From a bacterium (GTDB lineage Bacteria; RBG-13-66-14): 64,000 bases of DNA. Numbering within the stretch: the first letter of the stretch is position 1; every line of letters starts with the position of its first letter. Location of the stretch: the NCBI GenBank assembly GCA_035528375.1, contig DATKYS010000132.1:731-64730 (forward strand). Direction: 5' to 3'. The notes under the pieces are model-generated. The model made no database searches, was not told the DNA's origin, and saw only the letters and a list, made by a program, of their open reading frames with translations. Both the position numbers and the translations under genes were made by a program. Below are positions 2 through 54,826 of the stretch, in pieces.

Positions 2-1498
2 CTGGGCGAGATAGAGTCCACCAACCCCTGCGGTGAGCAGCCGCTTCTGCCCTACGAGTCGTGCAACCTGGGCAGTCTCAACCTGGGGCGGATGATGAAG
101 CGCTCAGGCGATTCCCACGAGATTGACTGGGACAAGCTGGCCCGCACCGTCCACGACTCCGTGCATTTTCTGGACAACGTCATAGACCTGAACAGCTATC
201 CCCTGGAGGAGATTTCACAACAGACGCGGGCCAACCGCAAGATCGGCCTGGGAGTGATGGGCTTCACCGACATGCTGGTCCGGCTGTGGGTCCCCTACGA
301 CTCGGCGGAGGCGGTGAAAATCGCCGGGGACGTAATGTCGTTCATCCAGGCCGAGGCTTGCAAGGCGAGCGAGAAGCTGGCCGAGACGCGCGGGCTTTTC
401 CCGAACTACCCCCACTCGTCCTTCGCCCGCGAGAAGGGCCCCAAGCTGCGCAACGCCGCGCTGACCACCATCGCCCCCACCGGCTCCATTTCCATCATCG
501 CAGGCTGCTCGTCGGGAATCGAGCCCTACTTCGCCCTGGCCTTCTACCGCCGGGTGCTCGACGACGACAAGCTCCCGGAGATCAATCCCCTCTTCCGGGA
601 GGTGGCCGAGAAGCGGGGTTTCGCCTCGGATGACCTGTTCAAGAAGGTGGCGGAGCACGGCTCCGTGGCCGGCCTCAAGGACGTGCCCGAGGACGTCCGG
701 CGCATCTTCGTCACCGCCCACGAGATAGAGCCCGCAGACCACATCCGCATCCAGGCCGCCTTCCAGAATCACGTGGATGCGGCCGTGTCGAAAACCATCA
801 ATTTCCCCACGAGCGCCACCGAGGCCCAGATAAAAGAGGCGTACCGGGTGGCCTACGACCTGGGGTGCAAGGGGATCACCGTTTACCGCGACGGCTCGCG
901 CGACGCGCAGGTCCTCAACATCGGCCGGGAGGAGAAGAAGGTCGAGGAGAAGCTGCGTGAGCCGCGCCCGCGCCCCATGGTCACCCATGGCCAGACCATC
1001 AAGATGACCACCGGTTGCGGAACCCTCTACGTGACCATCAACGAGGACGCCGAGGGCCTGTGCGAGGTTTTCGCCCAGATGGGCAAGGCCGGCGGGTGCG
1101 AGGCCAGCCAGAGCGAGGCGGTGAGCCGCCTCATCTCCACCTCCATCCGCGCCGGCGTGGACGTGAACAAAATCGTGGACCAGCTCCGCGGCATCCGCTG
1201 CCCCACCCCCATCTGGCACGGCGGCGAGCAGATTCTCTCCTGCCCCGACGCCATCGCCCGGGCCATCCAGTACTACCTCGACCCCGAGAAGCACGGCTTC
1301 GGCGGACGCGCCGCCAAGCAGATGACCTTCGAGGCGATAGAGGGCAAGGTGCCGGAAGAACAAGGCGACGGGAACAACGGCGGCAAGCAGAAGGTGATGC
1401 TCCCGGTGAAGTCCGCCTGTCCCGACTGCCACGGCCAGCTCTACTTCGCCGAAGGGTGCCTGATTTGCCCGGCCTGCGGCTACTCGAAGTGCAGTTAA
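2..1498 (+). CDS. nrdJ: Adenosylcobalamin-dependent (class II) ribonucleotide reductase, C-terminal portion; 5' end lies outside the window
   Basis: In-frame translation from nt 2 reads LGEIESTNPCGEQPLLPYESCNLGSLNLG (class II RNR NPCGEQ active-site motif), continuing into TTIAPTGSISIIAGCSSGIEPYF. C-terminal CPDCHG...CPACG zinc ribbon. The ORF track Met at 92 is internal. Confidence 0.85.
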   Translation: MGEIESTNPCGEQPLLPYESCNLGSLNLGRMMKRSGDSHEIDWDKLARTVHDSVHFLDNVIDLNSYPLEEISQQTRANRKIGLGVMGFTDMLVRLWVPYDSAEAVKIAGDVMSFIQAEACKASEKLAETRGLFPNYPHSSFAREKGPKLRNAALTTIAPTGSISIIAGCSSGIEPYFALAFYRRVLDDDKLPEINPLFREVAEKRGFASDDLFKKVAEHGSVAGLKDVPEDVRRIFVTAHEIEPADHIRIQAAFQNHVDAAVSKTINFPTSATEAQIKEAYRVAYDLGCKGITVYRDGSRDAQVLNIGREEKKVEEKLREPRPRPMVTHGQTIKMTTGCGTLYVTINEDAEGLCEVFAQMGKAGGCEASQSEAVSRLISTSIRAGVDVNKIVDQLRGIRCPTPIWHGGEQILSCPDAIARAIQYYLDPEKHGFGGRAAKQMTFEAIEGKVPEEQGDGNNGGKQKVMLPVKSACPDCHGQLYFAEGCLICPACGYSKCS

Positions 1499-1594: not shown

Positions 1595-1945
1595 ATGCAC
1601 GAATATGGGGCTTACTGCGGGCTGGACTGCGACGCCTGCGAGGCGCGGCTGGCCCACGTGGACAACGACTTGGCCAAATTGGAAGAGCTGGCCCGCAAGG
1701 CCCGCGAGGAGTGGGGCATGGCCGACGCCACCGCCGAGGACACCCGCTGCGTCGGCTGTTACGGCGACCCGCCCGACCCGCTCATCGGGTACTGCCTCGA
1801 GTGCGGCATCCGGGCCTGCGCCCGGGGGAGGGGTGTTTCCACCTGCGCCGAGTGCCCCGACTACGCCTGCGAGCAACTCCGGGGTTTCATCGAAAAGTCC
1901 CCCGAGGCCAAGGGGAACCTGGAGGCCCGCCGAGCTGAGATGTAA
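1595..1945 (+). CDS. DUF3795-like cysteine-rich (zinc-binding) small protein
   Basis: 116 aa with multiple CxxC/CxC pairs (CGLDCDAC, CVGC, CLEC, CAEC), the typical DUF3795 pattern. Terminator hairpin follows. Confidence 0.55.
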   Translation: MHEYGAYCGLDCDACEARLAHVDNDLAKLEELARKAREEWGMADATAEDTRCVGCYGDPPDPLIGYCLECGIRACARGRGVSTCAECPDYACEQLRGFIEKSPEAKGNLEARRAEM

Positions 1946-2004
1946 ACCGCCGCCCCGTTTCCCGTCTCTGTACCGAGTTGTAACCGTGAAGTCCGAAACA
2001 AGAA

Positions 2005-2027
2005 AGGCGGCCCGTGCCGCCTTTTTA
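2005..2027 (+). terminator. Rho-independent terminator (GGCGGCccgtGCCGCC + T5)
   Basis: Perfect GC hairpin followed by TTTTT directly after the DUF3795 stop. Confidence 0.6.
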
Positions 2028-2040
2028 ATATCGCTTTAAT

Positions 2041-2301
2041 TCAAACTTCATTGACTTCTTGGATGGGGGTACCTGTACCTGAAGGGATTGTAACCACATT
2101 GAATTCCCCACAGTTAGGGCAAGTGAAAGGACTTGTGTTAAAAGTGTTAACTGGGAATATAATTTTACACGCCGGACACCAAGCAGCTGCGTTATTTCCC
2201 AACGCCCAAATAGGAAATGACCTTCTATTTAACAGATTTTCCGGTATTTGCCTGTATGATTCTTGACCTACTGCGCCGTATTTGTATCTCATTCCCATCA
2301 C
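2041..2301 (-). CDS. Small zinc-ribbon protein (CPAC...CPNC), part of a low-GC islet
   Basis: 86-aa ORF with two CxxC pairs 22 aa apart. Lies in a 30-40 % GC segment against a 65 % GC background. Co-directional with and 85 nt downstream of the 237-aa orphan. Confidence 0.5.
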   Translation of the reverse strand: MMGMRYKYGAVGQESYRQIPENLLNRRSFPIWALGNNAAAWCPACKIIFPVNTFNTSPFTCPNCGEFNVVTIPSGTGTPIQEVNEV

Positions 2302-2386
2302 CTCACCTTTCCTTTAGAGTTGAAAAAATCATTTTGTCCTGATAGAGTGCTAGGTAATTTAATGTATGTTTCTGTACAGCTATATT

Positions 2387-3100
2387 TTAGTATCTGTTTA
2401 TGAAATCTAAGAATTTCAAACCAGATGTGTCAATTATATTTGTGTGGTATTTGTTTGTATCATATTTATACTTATCATCTTGAATGTTTTGTTGTTTTGT
2501 ATAACCACCATATAAGAAGAAAATGTGTGTAGAGGTGATTATTGATTGAGCAATGTCGGATGGTAAGTCTGGTAATGCTTCTTTAATTAGTAAATATTGT
2601 GGACTATTAGGTGGATTGTGTTGTAAAAACCTATCATAAATGTCTTTCTGCACTGATATTTCTAAGAGAGTTAGATGTAAACTTGTTAGGCTATTAAGGC
2701 AATGTAAATAATAGTCAGCTAAATCTAATTCTATACGTTCTTTTTTTGATATATTTAAAATAGCATTTTTATAATTATTAATTTTGCTTGTATTCTTGGC
2801 GGTTGTGGCACTTATTAAAACGTCTTCGAAAAAACAGGTGTATTCATCGGTTCGAAGAAAATTATCATCTAATATATGCTTATTCGATAATTCATTCAAA
2901 CCCGCTGCTATTTCGAATAGTAATCTTTTTAATACATCAAATCTCCTTTTAGTAATTCGATAGCTAATAATATTATCTATTGATGAACCAACTATTGGAA
3001 ATGCCGTTATAAGTGGCTTAATAATAGATTCATATAGTTCTTCATGTGGTTTTGATAAATCTCTAAGGTAATCGTATAATTTATTATTTGCTTCTACCAC
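2387..3100 (-). CDS. Orphan hypothetical protein (237 aa), low-GC islet; no recognisable family
   Basis: Long uninterrupted ORF in an AT-rich segment (many Lys/Asn/Ile/Tyr codons), starting 5 nt after the pilQ stop. I can see no conserved catalytic motif. Confidence 0.55.
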   Translation of the reverse strand: MVEANNKLYDYLRDLSKPHEELYESIIKPLITAFPIVGSSIDNIISYRITKRRFDVLKRLLFEIAAGLNELSNKHILDDNFLRTDEYTCFFEDVLISATTAKNTSKINNYKNAILNISKKERIELDLADYYLHCLNSLTSLHLTLLEISVQKDIYDRFLQHNPPNSPQYLLIKEALPDLPSDIAQSIITSTHIFFLYGGYTKQQNIQDDKYKYDTNKYHTNIIDTSGLKFLDFINRY

Positions 3101-3105
3101 AGAGT

Positions 3106-5223
3106 TTACTCCGGGCGGACCAGGTGCGGGGTGACGAATATCAACAGCTCGCGCACCTCGTCGGAATCCGACGTGCTCTTGAACAACAGGCCCAGTACCG
3201 GGATGCTGGATAACAGCGGCACCCCCTGCTCAATCGATTCGGTCTTGCGCCGCAGGAGGCCGCCGATGACGCCGGTCTCGCCGTTCTGCAGCAACAGTGT
3301 GGTGCTGGCCTCGGTGGTGTCCACCTGGAACTCGAGCCCCGGCGCCGGGGTGCGGGACATCTCCGAAATCTCCGGCCGGATGTCCAGGGTTATCTCGTTG
3401 ACCGAGTTCACGTGGGGGGTGACCGAGAGCTTGATGCCCACGTCGTAGAGCTCGACGTAGGTGTTGCCGTTCTCGTCGAGTAGGTTGACGGGGATGCGGC
3501 TGCCGACGAGGATGCGGGCCTCCTGGTTGTCCAGGGTGGTGATGCGGGGGGCAGAGAGGATGTTGGTGTCGGTGTCGGCGGCGTTGGCCTGGAGGGTCGC
3601 CTGGAGTGTGGCGGCGTCGAGGGCCGTGCGGCCGGTGGCGGTGAGGGTGCCGGCGTTGGACGGGGTGTCTATGACCACCGAGTTGCCCCGGAGACCGAAC
3701 TCCCAGTCTATGCCCAGCTCGGTGAGGGTGGTGATGCGCACGTCGAAAATTTTCGCCTCGATCATCACCTGGGCGGTGCGGGCGTCGAGCTGCTCGACCA
3801 GTCGGCGGATGCGGTCGCGGCGCTCCAGGGTGTCGGTGACGATGAGGGAGTTGGTCCGCGGCTCGACCTGAATCTGGCCCCGGTCCGAAATCATGGACTC
3901 GAAGCTGGCCTTGAGGCTGGCCGCCGTGGCGTAGCGCAGGGTGATTATCTCGGTGCCCACGGGCGAGGCGGCCTCGGCCTCGGCCATCTTCACCAGCTCC
4001 TCGGGGGTGTTGACCCGGATGATGGAGCCCTCGACGCGGTAGGAGAGGCCGTGGGCGGCCAGAATCACGCGCAGCGCCTCGTCCCAGGGCACGTCGCGCA
4101 GGGCGACGGTGACCTTGCCGGTGACGTTGGGCCCGGCCACGATGTTCATCCCCGTCTCGAAGGCCAGCATCCGCAGGACGTTGCCGATGTCGGCGTCCTT
4201 CAGGTCCATGGATATGCGCTTGCCCGAGGGGATGGTGCCTCCCCCGCTCGAGCCGCCGTAGCCCGTCTCGGCGGTGTAGGTCTCGGTGGTGTGGTAGGAG
4301 GTGGAGCCGACGCCCGACTCGGCGACCTCGGCGGTGACGTAGGTCTCCACGCGCTCCAGGTCCACGCTGGAGGTGTAGCCGTAGCTCAGGCCGGCGAAGG
4401 GATCGGTCTCCTCGGTGATGACGTCCAGGTAGAGGGCGTTGCCCCGGCGGGTGATGAGGTAGGGGTAGTCGCCGGTGGTCTGGGTGACGACGCGGACGAT
4501 GCGCTGGGGGGTGGTGGAGTACTGTGTGGCGCTGACCTTGACCAATCCGCCCCGGTCCAGGTAGAGGGTCGGCTGGTCGAGGTCCACCCGGGCGCCGATC
4601 AGGTCCAGCACGAAGGTCCGCGGCGATACGGTCTTAGAGAAATCGAACTTCAGCGGCGCGTCGGCGGTAATCTCTATCCGGGTCTTGCCGATGAGCTCGC
4701 GCACCTCGATGTCGCCGACCGCGGCTATCTCCGCCGTAATCCGCTCCTCGGGCCGTCCCCCGGGCGGGGCGGGGAAGCGGACCTCGATGGTGTTGCCCTC
4801 CTTCGTCAGGTAGTAGGGTTCGAACCGGGTCAGATCAATGACCACGCGGACTATCTTGGAGGGTATCTCCGAGTACTGGCTGGAGCGGATGCGCTGTATG
4901 TTATGGCCGGTCTCGACCTTGACCAGGGGGTCGCACTGGTGGACCGAGTTCTTGATGTCCACGATGACCCGGGGCGGGTCCTCCAGGGAGAAGACGTCGT
5001 AAACCAGGGAGGCGTCGCCGGTGATGGTGACTATCTCGTCGCCGCCGGCGTCGGTGGAGAACTCGACGGAGGATACGCGGGGCGCCTGGGCGAGGGCGAT
5101 CGTCGCCGACAGGAAAACGATGAGCAATAACGGGGGTCTGACTCTCACGGCCACTTCCCGTTCGGGGCGGGTATTCTTCCCCTGAAGTATAGCAGAAATC
5201 GAGGGTGATGCAAGGGTGTGCAA
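3106..5223 (-). CDS. pilQ: Type IV pilus / type II secretion secretin (PilQ/GspD family)
   Basis: Signal peptide, N-terminal AMIN-like repeats, C-terminal secretin motifs (GETGVIGGL...VPLLSSIPVLGLLF...ELLIFVTPHLV). Confidence 0.8.
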   Translation of the reverse strand: MHTLASPSISAILQGKNTRPEREVAVRVRPPLLLIVFLSATIALAQAPRVSSVEFSTDAGGDEIVTITGDASLVYDVFSLEDPPRVIVDIKNSVHQCDPLVKVETGHNIQRIRSSQYSEIPSKIVRVVIDLTRFEPYYLTKEGNTIEVRFPAPPGGRPEERITAEIAAVGDIEVRELIGKTRIEITADAPLKFDFSKTVSPRTFVLDLIGARVDLDQPTLYLDRGGLVKVSATQYSTTPQRIVRVVTQTTGDYPYLITRRGNALYLDVITEETDPFAGLSYGYTSSVDLERVETYVTAEVAESGVGSTSYHTTETYTAETGYGGSSGGGTIPSGKRISMDLKDADIGNVLRMLAFETGMNIVAGPNVTGKVTVALRDVPWDEALRVILAAHGLSYRVEGSIIRVNTPEELVKMAEAEAASPVGTEIITLRYATAASLKASFESMISDRGQIQVEPRTNSLIVTDTLERRDRIRRLVEQLDARTAQVMIEAKIFDVRITTLTELGIDWEFGLRGNSVVIDTPSNAGTLTATGRTALDAATLQATLQANAADTDTNILSAPRITTLDNQEARILVGSRIPVNLLDENGNTYVELYDVGIKLSVTPHVNSVNEITLDIRPEISEMSRTPAPGLEFQVDTTEASTTLLLQNGETGVIGGLLRRKTESIEQGVPLLSSIPVLGLLFKSTSDSDEVRELLIFVTPHLVRPE

Positions 5224-5290: not shown

Positions 5291-5788
5291 TCACCAGCCC
5301 TCGACGATGCGGTCCACGACACGCTGGGCCAGGAGGTTGACCGACTCGGTGTAGGCCTCCGCCTCGGTCCCGCTCCCCGCGCCGGTCTCGACGTCGTAGT
5401 ACGTCACGCGCTCGGAGAGGGAGGTGTCCCGCCAGAGGTCGCGTTTGGCGTCCAGGTCCCGGAAGACCACCTCGAGCTCCACGGTGAGCTCGCGTTTTTT
5501 CACCGCCTCCTCCACGTCGTAGGCCACGGCGCGGGTGACGTAGCTGGTGATGGTGACCAGGAGGAGGGAGTCGGCGCGCGCCTCGGGGGCCACGGTCAGG
5601 GGCGAGTTGACCAGGAGTTCCTCGATGATGGCGGCGGTGAGCTCCTGCTCGATGCCGTACTCGAATGTGGCGTTGGCGACGGTGGGCACCGCCACCGACT
5701 CGATTCCCGGCGGCAGGTTGGGGCTGAAGGTGTAGCGGCAGCCCGCGGTAAGGACCAGCGCCACGAGTGGAGCGACGATTCTCCTCAC
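5291..5788 (-). CDS. Lipoprotein, LptE-like (LPS-assembly lipoprotein) candidate
   Basis: Lipobox LTAGC, then a Y/F pattern. Length and overall layout resemble LptE. Weak call. Confidence 0.4.
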   Translation of the reverse strand: MRRIVAPLVALVLTAGCRYTFSPNLPPGIESVAVPTVANATFEYGIEQELTAAIIEELLVNSPLTVAPEARADSLLLVTITSYVTRAVAYDVEEAVKKRELTVELEVVFRDLDAKRDLWRDTSLSERVTYYDVETGAGSGTEAEAYTESVNLLAQRVVDRIVEGW

Positions 5789-6450
5789 GGCCGTTCCTCT
5801 TTCAGGAAGTCCACGAGCCGCTTCAGCGCTCGGCCGCGGTGGCTGACGGCGTGCTTGGCCTCCGGGGAATGTTGGGCGAAGGTAAGCTCCGACCCCTCGG
5901 GGATGAAGAGGGGGTCGTAACCGAATCCCCCGTCGCCTACCGGCCGGTCCCCGATCCGCCCCTCCACCTTCCCCACGGCGGCCAGGAGAACCTCCCCCGC
6001 CGGAGTGACCAGGGCGACGGCGCAGGTGTAGCGGGCGATGCGGTCGGAGAATCCCTCGAGCTCGGCGAGGAGCCGCACGTTGTTGAGCGAATCCGCGGGG
6101 ACGTCCGTCGCCGTCAGCGGACGGCCTCCGGGGTATTCTGGATAAATGCCGCGAAGCATTTCGGCGTCGAGGGCGTGGTACCGGGCGGAGAAGATACCCG
6201 GCGCGCCGCCCAGGGTGTCCACGGACAGCCCCGAGTCCTCGCCCAGCCCCAGGTCGCCGAACCTCTCGGCTACGGCGGTGGCCTTGAGGACGGCGTTTTC
6301 GGTGAAGCTCCGGCCGGTCTCGGCAATCTCGAGGGTGCCCGCGGGGTCGAGCTCCAGGAGGGAGACCGGGTGGTACCCCTCGGTTCCGAGGATGTCCCGG
6401 AGCTCGCGGAGCTTGTCGGGGTTTCGGCTGGCGATCAGGATGCGGCTCAT
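5785..6450 (-). CDS. rdgB: Non-canonical purine NTP pyrophosphatase (dITP/XTP pyrophosphatase, Ham1/RdgB)
   Basis: MSRILIASRNPDKLRELRDIL...TFAQHSPEAKHAVSHRGRALKRLVDFL, the full-length Ham1 family pattern. Confidence 0.85.
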   Translation of the reverse strand: MSRILIASRNPDKLRELRDILGTEGYHPVSLLELDPAGTLEIAETGRSFTENAVLKATAVAERFGDLGLGEDSGLSVDTLGGAPGIFSARYHALDAEMLRGIYPEYPGGRPLTATDVPADSLNNVRLLAELEGFSDRIARYTCAVALVTPAGEVLLAAVGKVEGRIGDRPVGDGGFGYDPLFIPEGSELTFAQHSPEAKHAVSHRGRALKRLVDFLKEERP

Positions 6451-10313: not shown

Positions 10314-10402
10314 GCCCCAAGGATACCCGGCTCCGCCCTTTGTATCAAGGGCCGAATTGGCGTCTATTGTCTTAGGCCGCCCCAGGCCGTATAATCACCA
10401 CC

Positions 10403-11470
10403 GTGAGATTATTCGCGACCCTCCTGGTGCTTCTGGCGCTCCTCGCCGTCTCCTCCGGTGCGACGGAGGCCTACTACCGCACCCTTTCAAATTTAAACTG
10501 CCGTCCCCTGGCGATGGGCGGCGCCTTTCTGGCCGTACCCTGCGAGTTCGAGGCGGCGCTCTACAACCCGGCCGGCTTCGTCCACGGGGAGGGGTTCGGC
10601 GGGGTGCTGAACCTGGGCCTCACCATGTACTGGCTCTGCCGCGGATTCGGGGAGGAGGCCCGAATGCAGGACGTGGAGCTCGGCGGCTCTCCGGGCTCCG
10701 ATTTCGCCACCCTCGCCCTCTCCACCCTGGTGGGCGCCAAAGCGCTCAGCTACTCCGTCGGTGGATTCTACGCCTTCTGCAACCTCTGGGAGGAGAGCCT
10801 CGCCGATCCGGCGACCTTCGATGACCCCCATTTCTTCCACGTCAAGGGGCTCTGGGCCGATCGCACCAACACCCTCGGGGCGGGATACCGCTTCCCCGAG
10901 GGGGTCACGCTGGCCGTGAGCGGGAGCTACTACTCCCGCGAGTACCCGGTGGTGCGTGAGGGTGGGGCTCTCGATGAAGTCGTTGACTGGGAGCGCAGGA
11001 GCGGCTACGGCTTTACCGTGGGCGCCACCTGGGAGTTCATCCCCCGCGCCTACGTGGCCGCCACCTATGTGGACCTCCCCGATAATCTCCCCGGCTGTCG
11101 GGCCAACCTGGAGGGCCTGGGCGACGAGACCATCAACGTCGGCGCCGCGTGGTTCCCCTTTCCCGACGTCGTCTTCTCCCTGGACGTACGCAACCTGGTC
11201 AACAGCCGGGCCGAGGCCTTCCGCGAGGTAAGGGTCGGGCTGGATCAGCGTCTGCTGCCCCACCTGACCTTCCGGGCCGGTTACGCCTACACGGGTGAGG
11301 AGGAGCACCTGTGGAGCCTCGGGTTGGGGGTGGGTGACGGCAGCCTGGGCGCCGCGGGCGGCATCCAGACGAACCTGGCCCAGAGCAACTACATCCTCAA
11401 CTACACGTTTCTGAAGAACCAGACCGCCGACCAGATTTACCACCTCCTGAGCTTCGTCGTGACGTTCTAG
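10403..11470 (+). CDS. Outer-membrane beta-barrel protein (possibly PorV/FadL-like)
   Basis: Signal peptide, alternating amphipathic strands, C-terminal ...LLSFVVTF aromatic terminus typical of OMPs. Family call uncertain. Confidence 0.5.
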   Translation: MRLFATLLVLLALLAVSSGATEAYYRTLSNLNCRPLAMGGAFLAVPCEFEAALYNPAGFVHGEGFGGVLNLGLTMYWLCRGFGEEARMQDVELGGSPGSDFATLALSTLVGAKALSYSVGGFYAFCNLWEESLADPATFDDPHFFHVKGLWADRTNTLGAGYRFPEGVTLAVSGSYYSREYPVVREGGALDEVVDWERRSGYGFTVGATWEFIPRAYVAATYVDLPDNLPGCRANLEGLGDETINVGAAWFPFPDVVFSLDVRNLVNSRAEAFREVRVGLDQRLLPHLTFRAGYAYTGEEEHLWSLGLGVGDGSLGAAGGIQTNLAQSNYILNYTFLKNQTADQIYHLLSFVVTF

Positions 11471-52996: not shown

Positions 52997-54826
52997 ATGC
53001 CTCTGGAAGATTTAAAGAAAAGCCTGTCGGCGATAATCGGCAAAACGGCCGAGGGGCTCTTCGACCTCCCGGACGGCCCGCCCGCCTTCGACCTCTCGCC
53101 CTCGGCGGAGCCGAAATTCGGGCACTTCGCCTGCAACCTGGCGTTGCAGCTCGCCGGTCCGCTGAAGCGCAGCCCGCGGCAGATTGGCGAGGCATTGGCC
53201 GGAGAGTTGGAGAAGGTTTTTGGGGATTTGGTGGAGCGGATCGAGGTCGCCGGGCCGGGTTTTTTGAACTTCCACCTCGCCGCCGGGGCGCAGGCCGAGC
53301 CGGTGAAGTCCATTCTCGCGGAAGAGAAGCCCTTCCTCTGGCCCGCCGAGAAGCCGCTAAAGATCAACTTGGAGTACGTGAGCGCCAACCCGACGGGTCC
53401 GCTGCTGGTGGTGAACGGCCGCGCCGCGGCCCTGGGCAGCGCGTTGGCGAAAATCCTCGTATCGGTGGGCCACCAGGTCACGGAAGAGTATTTCGTCAAC
53501 GATGCTGGTAGCCAAGTGGTCGAGTTCGGCAAGAGCGTGTTCCGGGAGAATAGGGACAAGTATCGTAAGGCTGGATATGAGATACCAAATAATGTTTATG
53601 ATTTGGGTAACGAGGGAGGCTATGCAGGTGATACTACTTCTGATGTAGCTGACACTGTTTATAAGAGCTTTATAGAAGAATACATGGCGACTACGCGAAA
53701 AATGATCTTTGACGAAAAAGCATATATAGATGAAGTAAATAACAGTGTAGTTGCTCAGCTGGAAAAGCAACAAATTACATTAAAACGATTTGGTTGTTTG
53801 TTCCAACAGTTTTATAAAGAGCACTATCTCTACTTCCCATCGGTTCGTCCATCCTATAGGAGCGTACTTGAAAATTATATTTTAAACGATGAATTATACA
53901 TTGAGCGACTTCCAGGCCCAATTCGGGATGCCCTTTACCTACTTAAAGAGCTACGGATCGCCTACGAGTCCGAGGGCGCGGTCTGGCTCAGGACCACCGA
54001 CTACGGCGACGAGAAGGACCGCGTCATCGTCCGCTCCAACGGCAAGCCGACCTATCTCCTCACCGACATCGCCTACCACCTGGACAAGTGGGAACGGCTC
54101 GGCGGGGACGAGTCGGGACGCCTGATGATTGACATCTGGGGACCGGACCACCACGGCCACATCCTCCCCACCAAGGCCGGCCTCCAGGCCGCCGGCATCC
54201 CGCCGGACAGGCTGGAGGTTTTAATCTCCGGTTGGGTGACGCTCAAACGCGGCGGCGAAATCGTCTCCATGAGCAAGCGCAAGGGGAACATCGTCACCCT
54301 GGACGAGCTTCTGGACGAGGTCGGGGTGGACGTGGCGCGGTACATGTTCCTCGAGCGCTCGCCCGAGGCGCACCTGGACTTCGACCTGGACCTGGCCGTC
54401 CAGCAGTCCTCGGAGAACCCGGCGTACTACATCCAGTACGCCCACGCGCGCATCGAGAGCATCTTCTCCGTGGCCCGGGAGGAAGGTTTTAGCGAGGATG
54501 AGCTTGGCGATGCCTCACTGGCGGAAGCCGACCTGACGCCCCTCTTTACCGACGACGACGCGGGCGAGCGTCAGCGGGAACTCCTGCGGCAGATAATCTT
54601 CTACCCCGGCGTGGTCGCGGGCGCCGCGGCGGGCTACGCCCCCCAGCGCGTGACCGCCTATCTGCACAACCTGGCCGGCGTCTTCCACCCGTACTACAAG
54701 AAGGTCAAGGTGCTGGTGGAGGAACGGGGGACGGCGCTGGCGCGGCTCGCTTTATGCCGGTCGTTGCAGAAAATCCTGGCCCACGGGCTCGGCCTGTTGG
54801 GCATATCGGCCCCCGAGTCCATGTAG
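52997..54826 (+). CDS. argS: Arginine--tRNA ligase (mosaic: in-frame low-GC segment at 53520..53900; degenerate HIGH motif)
   Basis: ArgS N-terminal Add-1 domain, ...EYVSANPTGPL[LVVN]GR... where HVGH is expected, ...WLRTTDYGDEKDRVIVRSNGKPTYLLTDIAYH..., SMSKRKGN, C-terminal DALR anticodon-binding domain. Confidence 0.85.
   Translation: MPLEDLKKSLSAIIGKTAEGLFDLPDGPPAFDLSPSAEPKFGHFACNLALQLAGPLKRSPRQIGEALAGELEKVFGDLVERIEVAGPGFLNFHLAAGAQAEPVKSILAEEKPFLWPAEKPLKINLEYVSANPTGPLLVVNGRAAALGSALAKILVSVGHQVTEEYFVNDAGSQVVEFGKSVFRENRDKYRKAGYEIPNNVYDLGNEGGYAGDTTSDVADTVYKSFIEEYMATTRKMIFDEKAYIDEVNNSVVAQLEKQQITLKRFGCLFQQFYKEHYLYFPSVRPSYRSVLENYILNDELYIERLPGPIRDALYLLKELRIAYESEGAVWLRTTDYGDEKDRVIVRSNGKPTYLLTDIAYHLDKWERLGGDESGRLMIDIWGPDHHGHILPTKAGLQAAGIPPDRLEVLISGWVTLKRGGEIVSMSKRKGNIVTLDELLDEVGVDVARYMFLERSPEAHLDFDLDLAVQQSSENPAYYIQYAHARIESIFSVAREEGFSEDELGDASLAEADLTPLFTDDDAGERQRELLRQIIFYPGVVAGAAAGYAPQRVTAYLHNLAGVFHPYYKKVKVLVEERGTALARLALCRSLQKILAHGLGLLGISAPESM

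Follow-up and report, generated by a model that had tools for sequence, protein, structure and literature searches.

What kind of gene is it that starts, in strongly AT-rich DNA, directly behind the type IV pilus secretin gene pilQ of a GC-rich bacterium? The gene lies in a 64,000-nt stretch of contig DATKYS010000132.1 (from here on the window), whose host lineage is probably Candidatus Coatesbacteria. Positions 2036-3105 of the window form an islet with two open reading frames (ORFs) encoding proteins of 237 and 86 residues, which an earlier note, made from the letters alone, had taken for a recently acquired two-gene module composed of an orphan protein and a zinc-ribbon partner, possibly with an anti-phage role. 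The answer that we prefer, and to which we give even chances, is that the 237-residue protein is encoded by a single-gene, Abi-alpha-like abortive-infection (Abi) or defence gene that stands last in the pilQ operon, where it is polymorphic and undergoes recombination.

Probable Membership of the 237-Residue Protein in the Abi-alpha Superfamily

A word-indexed protein search returned only the 237-residue protein itself and one relative with 75% identity (P0002). When a HMMER profile built from these two sequences was run against 1.84 billion representative proteins, 100 proteins were recovered at E ≤ 1e-3; these family representatives, each of which stands for a cluster at 50% identity, are mostly 220-245 residues long and are matched over residues ~20-150 or more. 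With about 100 remote homologue clusters recovered by exhaustive HMMER searching, the protein is not the orphan that the earlier note had seen in it. Neither phmmer against PDB sequences nor tblastn against GenBank phages gave a match for the window protein.

The Pfam family Abi_alpha (PF14337, formerly DUF4393) was matched by 17 of 94 relatives, with a best E value of 6.3e-8, and in the relatives that were inspected the match keeps a constant register, with profile position 2-6 falling on residue ~54-60. As a bona fide Abi_alpha set we used six GenBank phage proteins (from phiNM1, StB20-like, phi4B1, IPP23, Javan149 and Javan36), of which the phiNM1 DUF4393 protein scores 153.6 bits against PF14337. 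The hidden Markov model (HMM) of our family, built without the known positives, scored this phiNM1 protein at 22.9 bits (E 2e-9 as a single comparison), and hhalign of 88 family sequences against the six phage proteins gave a probability of 88.4% (E 2.8e-6) over 147 columns, which correspond to residues ~41-207 of the window protein. These comparisons support homology to Abi_alpha at the superfamily level only, through intermediates, and the 237-residue protein probably belongs to a family without a Pfam model that forms a distant branch of the Abi-alpha superfamily.

Using an alignment of 94 sequences, AlphaFold2 (AF2) gave a confident all-helical model of the protein (predicted local distance difference test score, pLDDT, 86.9; predicted template-modeling score, pTM, 0.81), and the protein is predicted to be cytoplasmic. 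Its N-terminal helical part carries a nearly invariant P35/G38 motif (IPvvG...), and the region around this motif bears a weak resemblance (E 0.002-0.05) to the N-terminal helix of PirB/Txp40-type toxins, which we regard as a lead only. The C-terminal part (residues ~125-237) may be winged-helix-like, an assignment made with low confidence. The HEPN-like Rx5H motif that the earlier note had picked out near the N terminus did not survive comparison with other proteins encoded behind pilQ: RDLSKPH in the window protein reads RNLSKPH in P0002, RELEPNS in P0004 and RRITKTI in P0005, so that H19 is variable even among pilQ-linked alleles, and the N-terminal 20 residues are unconserved throughout the family. 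No HEPN match was found for the 237-residue protein in Pfam or PADLOC.

The 237-Residue Gene as the Likely Last Cistron of the pilQ Operon

The start codon of the 237-residue gene follows the pilQ stop codon by 5 nt. The last codons of pilQ, CCG GAG TAA, hold a GGAG at 3109-3112, which is likely to serve as a Shine-Dalgarno or translational-coupling site for the 237-residue gene. The same layout recurs behind the pilQ genes of the related loci L001, L012 and L013, where GGAGTAA is followed by 7-10 nt and an ATG; across all four alleles (window, L001-3, L012 and L013) the start codon lies 5-10 nt past the pilQ TAA and the GGAG of the pilQ end 8-13 nt 5' of the start codon. No terminator separates pilQ from the islet gene in any of the four alleles, and no recognizable promoter of its own was found for the 237-residue gene. 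Because the start codon stands 5 nt after the pilQ stop, the GGAG is suitably placed and a promoter of its own is lacking, the gene is most likely the last cistron of the operon, and we infer that it is co-transcribed and translationally coupled with pilQ. The 237-residue gene would then end a Ham1-LptE-PilQ operon and be transcribed and translated with it, so that its product would accompany the type IV pilus secretin every time the latter is synthesized. A consensus scan of the AT-rich DNA for promoters gave 10 matches against 4.0 expected, and the sigma-70-like match at 2404..2433 is hence weak; a separate transcript of the small ORF could start there.

The neighborhoods of four more distant family members were compared with this arrangement, and none of them adjoins a secretin gene. 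The gene for P0103 ends a defence island that also encodes a PLD-SNF2 helicase and a methyltransferase of the Eco57I/MmeI type; that for P0008 has hypothetical genes around it and an IS605-type TnpB gene nearby; that for P0007 adjoins dxs; and that for P0056 (L034, 8001-8726) comes last in an operon for pyruvate:ferredoxin oxidoreductase subunits, after a 40-nt gap, with a Ham1 gene next. The last case hints that members of the family may tend to occupy operon tails elsewhere than behind pilQ. Since the wider-family members examined lie away from secretins, the linkage to pilQ appears to be specific to this lineage.

The Site behind pilQ Is Empty or Filled in Close Relatives

To compare the site behind pilQ, relatives were retrieved by PilQ similarity, the orthologues being ~75-95% identical. 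The gene for P0002 lies in L001, a 588-kb scaffold with the order Ham1, LptE, secretin, gene, small ORF and convergent ribonucleotide reductase (RNR); it has ~30% GC, its 20-kb locus ~59% and the flanking genes 60-65%. P0004, which is 31% identical to the window protein, comes from L012, a contig that consists of 90 nt of the PilQ C terminus, 7 nt, the gene and a terminator and nothing more. P0005 (22% identical; L013) is encoded by a gene with 38% GC against 59%, whose start codon lies 10 nt past a pilQ sharing 94% identity with that of L006, a locus in which the site is empty.

The site is equally empty in L004 and L005, whose PilQ is 93-95% identical to that of the window, and in L014, which shows 98% identity over the C-terminal 300 residues of PilQ. 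In these three loci the TAG stop codon is followed by the pilQ terminator, a hairpin plus T-run read by eye as terminator-like, and by ~150-220 bp up to the DUF3795 terminator. L017 is also empty after pilQ, and L008 carries only normal-GC, terminator-like sequence there, on a contig that ends ~680 nt past pilQ. Relative to the empty sites, ~130-150 bp including the pilQ terminator have been replaced by the islet and not duplicated. The earlier note had asked whether the interval is empty in the nearest relatives; it is, next to PilQs with 93-95% identity, and presence/absence polymorphism among close relatives was thus borne out. A metagenome scan with the PilQ C terminus yielded six loci and no new alleles.

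Two further relatives carry genes of normal GC at this position. In L015 (~4925-5170) a gene for a ~70-80-residue membrane protein stands right after pilQ, and in L007 (~10400-10920) pilQ is followed by a gene whose ~170-residue product has transmembrane segments and a zinc ribbon; with these other small genes, the position appears to be a general variable slot. The DUF3795 gene on the far side of the slot varies as well: its orthologues in L004 and L005 are 84% identical to the window's copy, L004 has tandem paralogues (3664-4011 and 4083-4421; 84% and 40% identical to that copy), and L001 has no DUF3795 gene between pilQ and RNR, making DUF3795 itself variable at the locus.

Beyond RNR, ~3 kb from the L001 islet, lies a gene for a 161-residue PycTM-domain protein (Pycsar effector-like) with 30% GC (L001 13903-14385, minus strand; L002 10828-11313), which is annotated in L002 only though the DNA is identical. 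This suggests that in the sister lineage AT-rich defence genes cluster near the islet. The window itself starts within RNR and does not reach the corresponding position.

Composition and Boundaries of the Islet

The islet is the strongest compositional outlier of the window, with a core of 28% GC against 65%. In 200-nt segments the GC content falls from 0.62-0.72 outside to 0.255-0.33 over ~2300-3100 and is back to 0.62 by 3101-3300, and the tetranucleotide distance from islet to window is 1.10, the maximum for other 1065-nt segments being 0.48. The 237-residue gene has 28.4% GC (z = -8.4 against the remaining window) and a GC content at third codon positions of 0.21, and the 86-residue ORF has 42.5% GC (z = -5.2). 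The strong deviation that the earlier note expected from a sliding-window and tetranucleotide check was therefore found, and the low GC that it had reported stands; its figure of 30-40% does not, as the main gene has ~28% and only the small ORF comes near 42%. GC, tetranucleotide and ORF data likewise agree with its description of a sharply bounded AT-rich segment with exactly two co-directional ORFs, both of which are on the minus strand, and its two spacings, 5 nt to pilQ and 85 nt between the ORFs, were right.

The features of the locus are given in Table 1. Alignment with the empty-site relatives places the right-hand boundary of the islet at ~2030-2040, directly after the stop codon of the 86-residue ORF. 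The pilQ-islet unit and the convergent DUF3795 gene share the hairpin just beyond it (2024..2003), whose homologue is the terminator found at the empty sites. A boundary scan found no terminal inverted repeats, target-site duplications, terminal repeats or direct repeats flanking the islet, which also has no tRNA, no recombinase ORF and no Rfam match; a mobile element would have been marked by repeats, an attC-like site, a recombinase or a tRNA target. The junctions of the islet are 100% identical in four further assemblies made from other samples (JGI, Logan and two from ENA). With the same junctions in five independent assemblies the islet is no chimeric join, which rules out the contaminating contig join that the earlier note had considered.

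Table 1. Features of the Locus around pilQ in the Window
Feature	Positions	Strand	Basis or remark
Ham1	5785-6450	-	Operon upstream of islet
LptE	5291-5788	-	Operon upstream of islet
PilQ-type secretin (AMIN x2, STN/N0, Secretin_N, Secretin)	3106..5223	-	Pfam Secretin E 7.5e-45, AMIN 7.7e-15
pilQ/islet junction: GGAG, TAA, 5-nt spacer ACTCT, GTG start	3101..3112	-	Sequence
237-residue gene, putative divergent Abi_alpha-like	2387..3100	-	
Sigma-70-like promoter match TTGACA-18-TAGATT in the 3' end of the 237-residue gene	2404..2433	-	Consensus scan
86-residue ORF with CPAC...CPNC	2041..2301	-	Sequence
GC-rich hairpin terminator, closes the pilQ-islet unit	2003..2024	-	Terminator scan and alignment
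DUF3795, convergent, normal GC	1595..1945	+	Pfam E 5.6e-14
RNR, C-terminal part, convergent	92-1498	+	

A second low-GC patch (0.36-0.41 against 0.65) occurs at 53500-53900 of the window, in frame within a 609-residue ORF (52997-54826, plus strand), and encodes a stretch of ~130 residues rich in K, N, Y and E (FRENRDKYRKAGYEIPNNVYDLG...YILNDELYIERL). Read from its translation, the ORF looks like an arginyl-tRNA synthetase, and the patch has the appearance of AT-rich DNA inserted into an essential gene.

Selection and Recombination at the Locus

Between the window and L001 alleles, the rate of nonsynonymous substitution (dN) is 0.144 and that of synonymous substitution (dS) 1.23, corresponding to a dN/dS of ~0.12 over 236 codons; for pilQ in the same pair, dN is 0.085 and dS 0.54. 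The 237-residue gene is under strong purifying selection, and its alleles either have a greater age than their flanks or evolve faster. The low GC had been explained in the earlier note by recent acquisition. This explanation fails, because alleles separated by a dS of ~1.2 and others with 22-31% amino acid identity all stay AT-rich; AT-richness that persists across such divergent alleles is not simply the mark of a recent arrival and appears to be a long-standing property of the locus. Members of the wider family reside in hosts with 37-57% GC, and their genes lie 3-6 points below the hosts.

In neighbor-joining (NJ) trees, the window protein, P0002 and P0004 form a clade with 88-95% bootstrap support. 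The BLOSUM-based NJ tree contains a clade of all four allele tips, but the joining of P0005 has a bootstrap of only 11-16%. This low value allows for both a single and a double capture, so that the site may hold a single old lineage that has diverged fast or may have captured members of one family twice, and the L013 allele that encodes P0005 may be an independent capture or too diverged to place.

Exchange of the islet between strains is suggested by L033, a 1.36-kb contig whose islet is identical to that of the window, with 0 differences over ~1240 bp including the downstream sequence. Its positions 1-117 (window 3151-3267) carry 10 single-nucleotide polymorphisms within 90 bp of the pilQ 3' end, which makes this end as divergent as those of other lineages. 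An identical islet beside a different pilQ haplotype points to homologous recombination with a breakpoint ~45 bp inside pilQ. In the pilQ and RNR flanks of the window itself, comparison with empty-site relatives disclosed no imported tract, identity being uniform (~92-97%) up to the stop codon. In this lineage the post-pilQ locus is polymorphic, either empty or occupied by one of several very divergent AT-rich alleles, which strains would exchange by homologous recombination via the conserved flanks.

The 86-Residue ORF with a Putative Zinc Ribbon

The second ORF of the islet, which would be 83 residues long if ATG 2292 is the start, is preceded by AAAGGAAAGGTGAGG, a good Shine-Dalgarno sequence, and its product contains the motifs CPAC (42-45) and CPNC (61-64). 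Its zinc-ribbon matches in Pfam and NCBIfam are all sub-threshold, the best being HypA with 20.2 bits against a required 28.9. Among 5.8 billion proteins the sole match was an identical copy, no relatives were found on viral contigs, the ORF is annotated in one of four gene calls on identical DNA, and its single-sequence AF2 model is poor (pLDDT 58). Nor does the ORF accompany the large gene in the other alleles. The L001 allele is followed by an unrelated 77-residue ORF (BLASTP gave no alignment, and the distal DNA is dissimilar), and in L012 a terminator comes directly after the gene, with no small ORF. A conserved adjacent partner, as in toxin-antitoxin or AbiE-like systems, is thus missing, and a partner that is swapped or absent across alleles leaves a conserved two-gene system unsupported. 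The 86-residue ORF is apparently a lineage-specific orphan and no conserved partner, and it may be a lineage-specific accessory or not a gene at all. We would regard it as an add-on particular to the window's allele, possibly without a role.

Weighing the Possible Functions

Several observations weigh against a defence role derived from Abi-alpha homology. The window protein gave nothing significant against Pfam, PADLOC, NCBIfam or PHROGs; PF14337 did not match it even at E ≤ 1, which leaves it outside the family by Pfam's own measure, and the inspected relatives score 16.4-28.9 bits against a gathering cut-off of 29. The family check proposed in the earlier note therefore gave no direct match in Pfam or PADLOC, and what it did give is remote homology to Abi_alpha by way of the family. 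When a profile was built solely from the four alleles linked to pilQ, it reached 0.7% in hhalign and 4.5 bits in hmmsearch against Abi_alpha; since this four-allele profile falls short, the link of the window protein is transitive, via intermediates. Abi-alpha homologues are typically prophage-borne with a promoter of their own and are not operon-tail genes (PMC6356687), and the Abi-alpha mechanism was still described as unknown in 2025 (bioRxiv 10.1101/2025.10.23.684294). The strict linkage to pilQ could instead mean a pilus-related role. The protein would in that case be an accessory or regulator associated with the pilus or secretin, for example a regulator with a winged helix, or a factor that acts upon DNA or cargo during passage through the secretin, and its divergence would reflect co-evolution with pilus-related surface variation, no Abi mechanism being involved. 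We consider this, the main rival reading, unlikely, as the gene is absent next to PilQs that are 93-95% identical, and hence not needed for secretin function; its alleles share 22-31% identity while the PilQs share 76-95%, the wider-family members of known context are found away from secretins, the family appears homologous to Abi_alpha, and the evidence for a winged helix is weak.

A toxin-antitoxin or Abi module, in which the 237-residue protein is, for example, the effector and the 86-residue zinc-ribbon protein its sensor or antitoxin, would explain why the ORFs are co-directional and 85 nt apart in one AT-rich segment closed by one terminator; it is also favored by the good ribosome-binding site of the small ORF, by the intact CxxC...CxxC motif of its product and by the small ORF that lies downstream of the L001 allele. 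The L001 ORF is, however, unrelated, and the L012 gene runs directly into its terminator. Bona fide Abi-alpha acts as a single gene (PMC6356687), and the zinc-ribbon ORF, which three of four gene calls omit, is without a homologue except for the identical copy, viral ones included, which makes such a module decidedly improbable in our view. The extreme compositional deviation and the absence of a curated family match would also suit functionless foreign DNA, be it a decaying acquired fragment or an assembly chimera. This we judge extremely unlikely given a dN/dS of ~0.12 over 236 codons, intact ORFs in four divergent alleles, five independent assemblies with identical junctions and the pLDDT of 86.9; artefact or junk is effectively excluded by constraint and independent assemblies.

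For the single-gene, Abi-alpha-like reading, we infer both a defence function and an Abi-type mechanism of the 237-residue gene from its sequence relationships, and the anti-phage or abortive-infection role that the earlier note had suspected is the best-supported function of the large gene, through the distant Abi_alpha homology. A bolder form of this reading, which we think rather unlikely, is a defence locus hard-wired to the secretin. Exactly where pilQ stops, a hypervariable Abi-alpha-like gene would be kept, and possibly captured repeatedly. Its dose would follow the expression of the type IV pilus machinery, the entry or exit route of pilus-dependent and filamentous phages; balancing or diversifying selection would maintain its alleles, and recombination would shuffle them.

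Comparison with Known Systems

Abi-alpha (EF2833, from prophage 6 of Enterococcus faecalis V583) is a 272-residue, single-gene abortive-infection protein that causes premature lysis of phage-infected cells (PMC6356687), and the phiNM1/80alpha DUF4393 protein is a further reference. The window protein resembles these in being a single protein of similar size (237 against 272-285 residues) with no enzymatic motif, encoded by a gene with GC below that of its host, and in having relatives in accessory and defence contexts; the single-gene architecture also holds here, the gene standing alone in L012. In contrast to the reference proteins, the window gene lies off a prophage, has no recognizable promoter of its own and is appended to a housekeeping secretin operon, the N-terminal region of its product with the IPxxG motif (~50 residues) falls outside the register of the Pfam domain, and its host is a GC-rich candidate-phylum bacterium and not a Firmicute.

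Defence hotspots flanked by core genes in E. coli resemble the locus in that different cargo or nothing is found between core genes (here pilQ and DUF3795/RNR) and in that exchange proceeds via homologous recombination in the flanks (PMC10121019). The window differs in that its cargo is one cistron without a promoter, set to the nucleotide at the upstream stop codon, and in that the alternative cargos are mostly divergent members of one family and not unrelated systems, with no integrase or mobile element. In Pseudomonas aeruginosa, the tfpO and tfpW-Z genes downstream of pilA modify or assemble pilin and co-vary with the pilin allele. They too are hypervariable genes of atypical composition that follow a type IV pilus gene, in allele groups and with presence/absence, whereas the neighbor in the window is a conserved secretin without co-variation and the protein is probably Abi-related. 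Lactococcal abi genes are typically AT-richer than their host. Like the window gene, the lactococcal single-gene systems (AbiA-Z) are small stand-alone accessory genes, which abort phage infection (PMC13064643); no sequence relationship to them was detected for the window protein, which has no PADLOC Abi match, and the lactococcal genes are borne on plasmids or prophages and are not embedded in operons.

Implications

To a specialist in defence systems, the assignment to a family would come as no surprise; what was not expected is that AT-rich alleles of extreme divergence are repeatedly joined, to the nucleotide, to a secretin gene. If the hard-wired reading is true, the islet would contain the first abortive-infection gene to be translationally coupled to a gene of a phage-receptor machinery and would define a new branch of the Abi-alpha superfamily that Pfam does not cover. 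Should the gene have no defence function, its strict coupling to pilQ would point instead to an accessory factor of type IV pilus secretins. If the Abi-alpha-like reading holds, a family of ~230-residue proteins with at least 100 clusters and no curated model would join the Abi-alpha superfamily and bring a confident two-domain model from which to approach its mechanism, and the locus would exemplify a mode of defence deployment that island-based searches miss, namely a promoterless cistron on a housekeeping operon for a phage-receptor machine. It would also provide, from a GC-rich phylum without cultured members, a clean natural example of a site that is polymorphic both in occupancy and in its several alleles.

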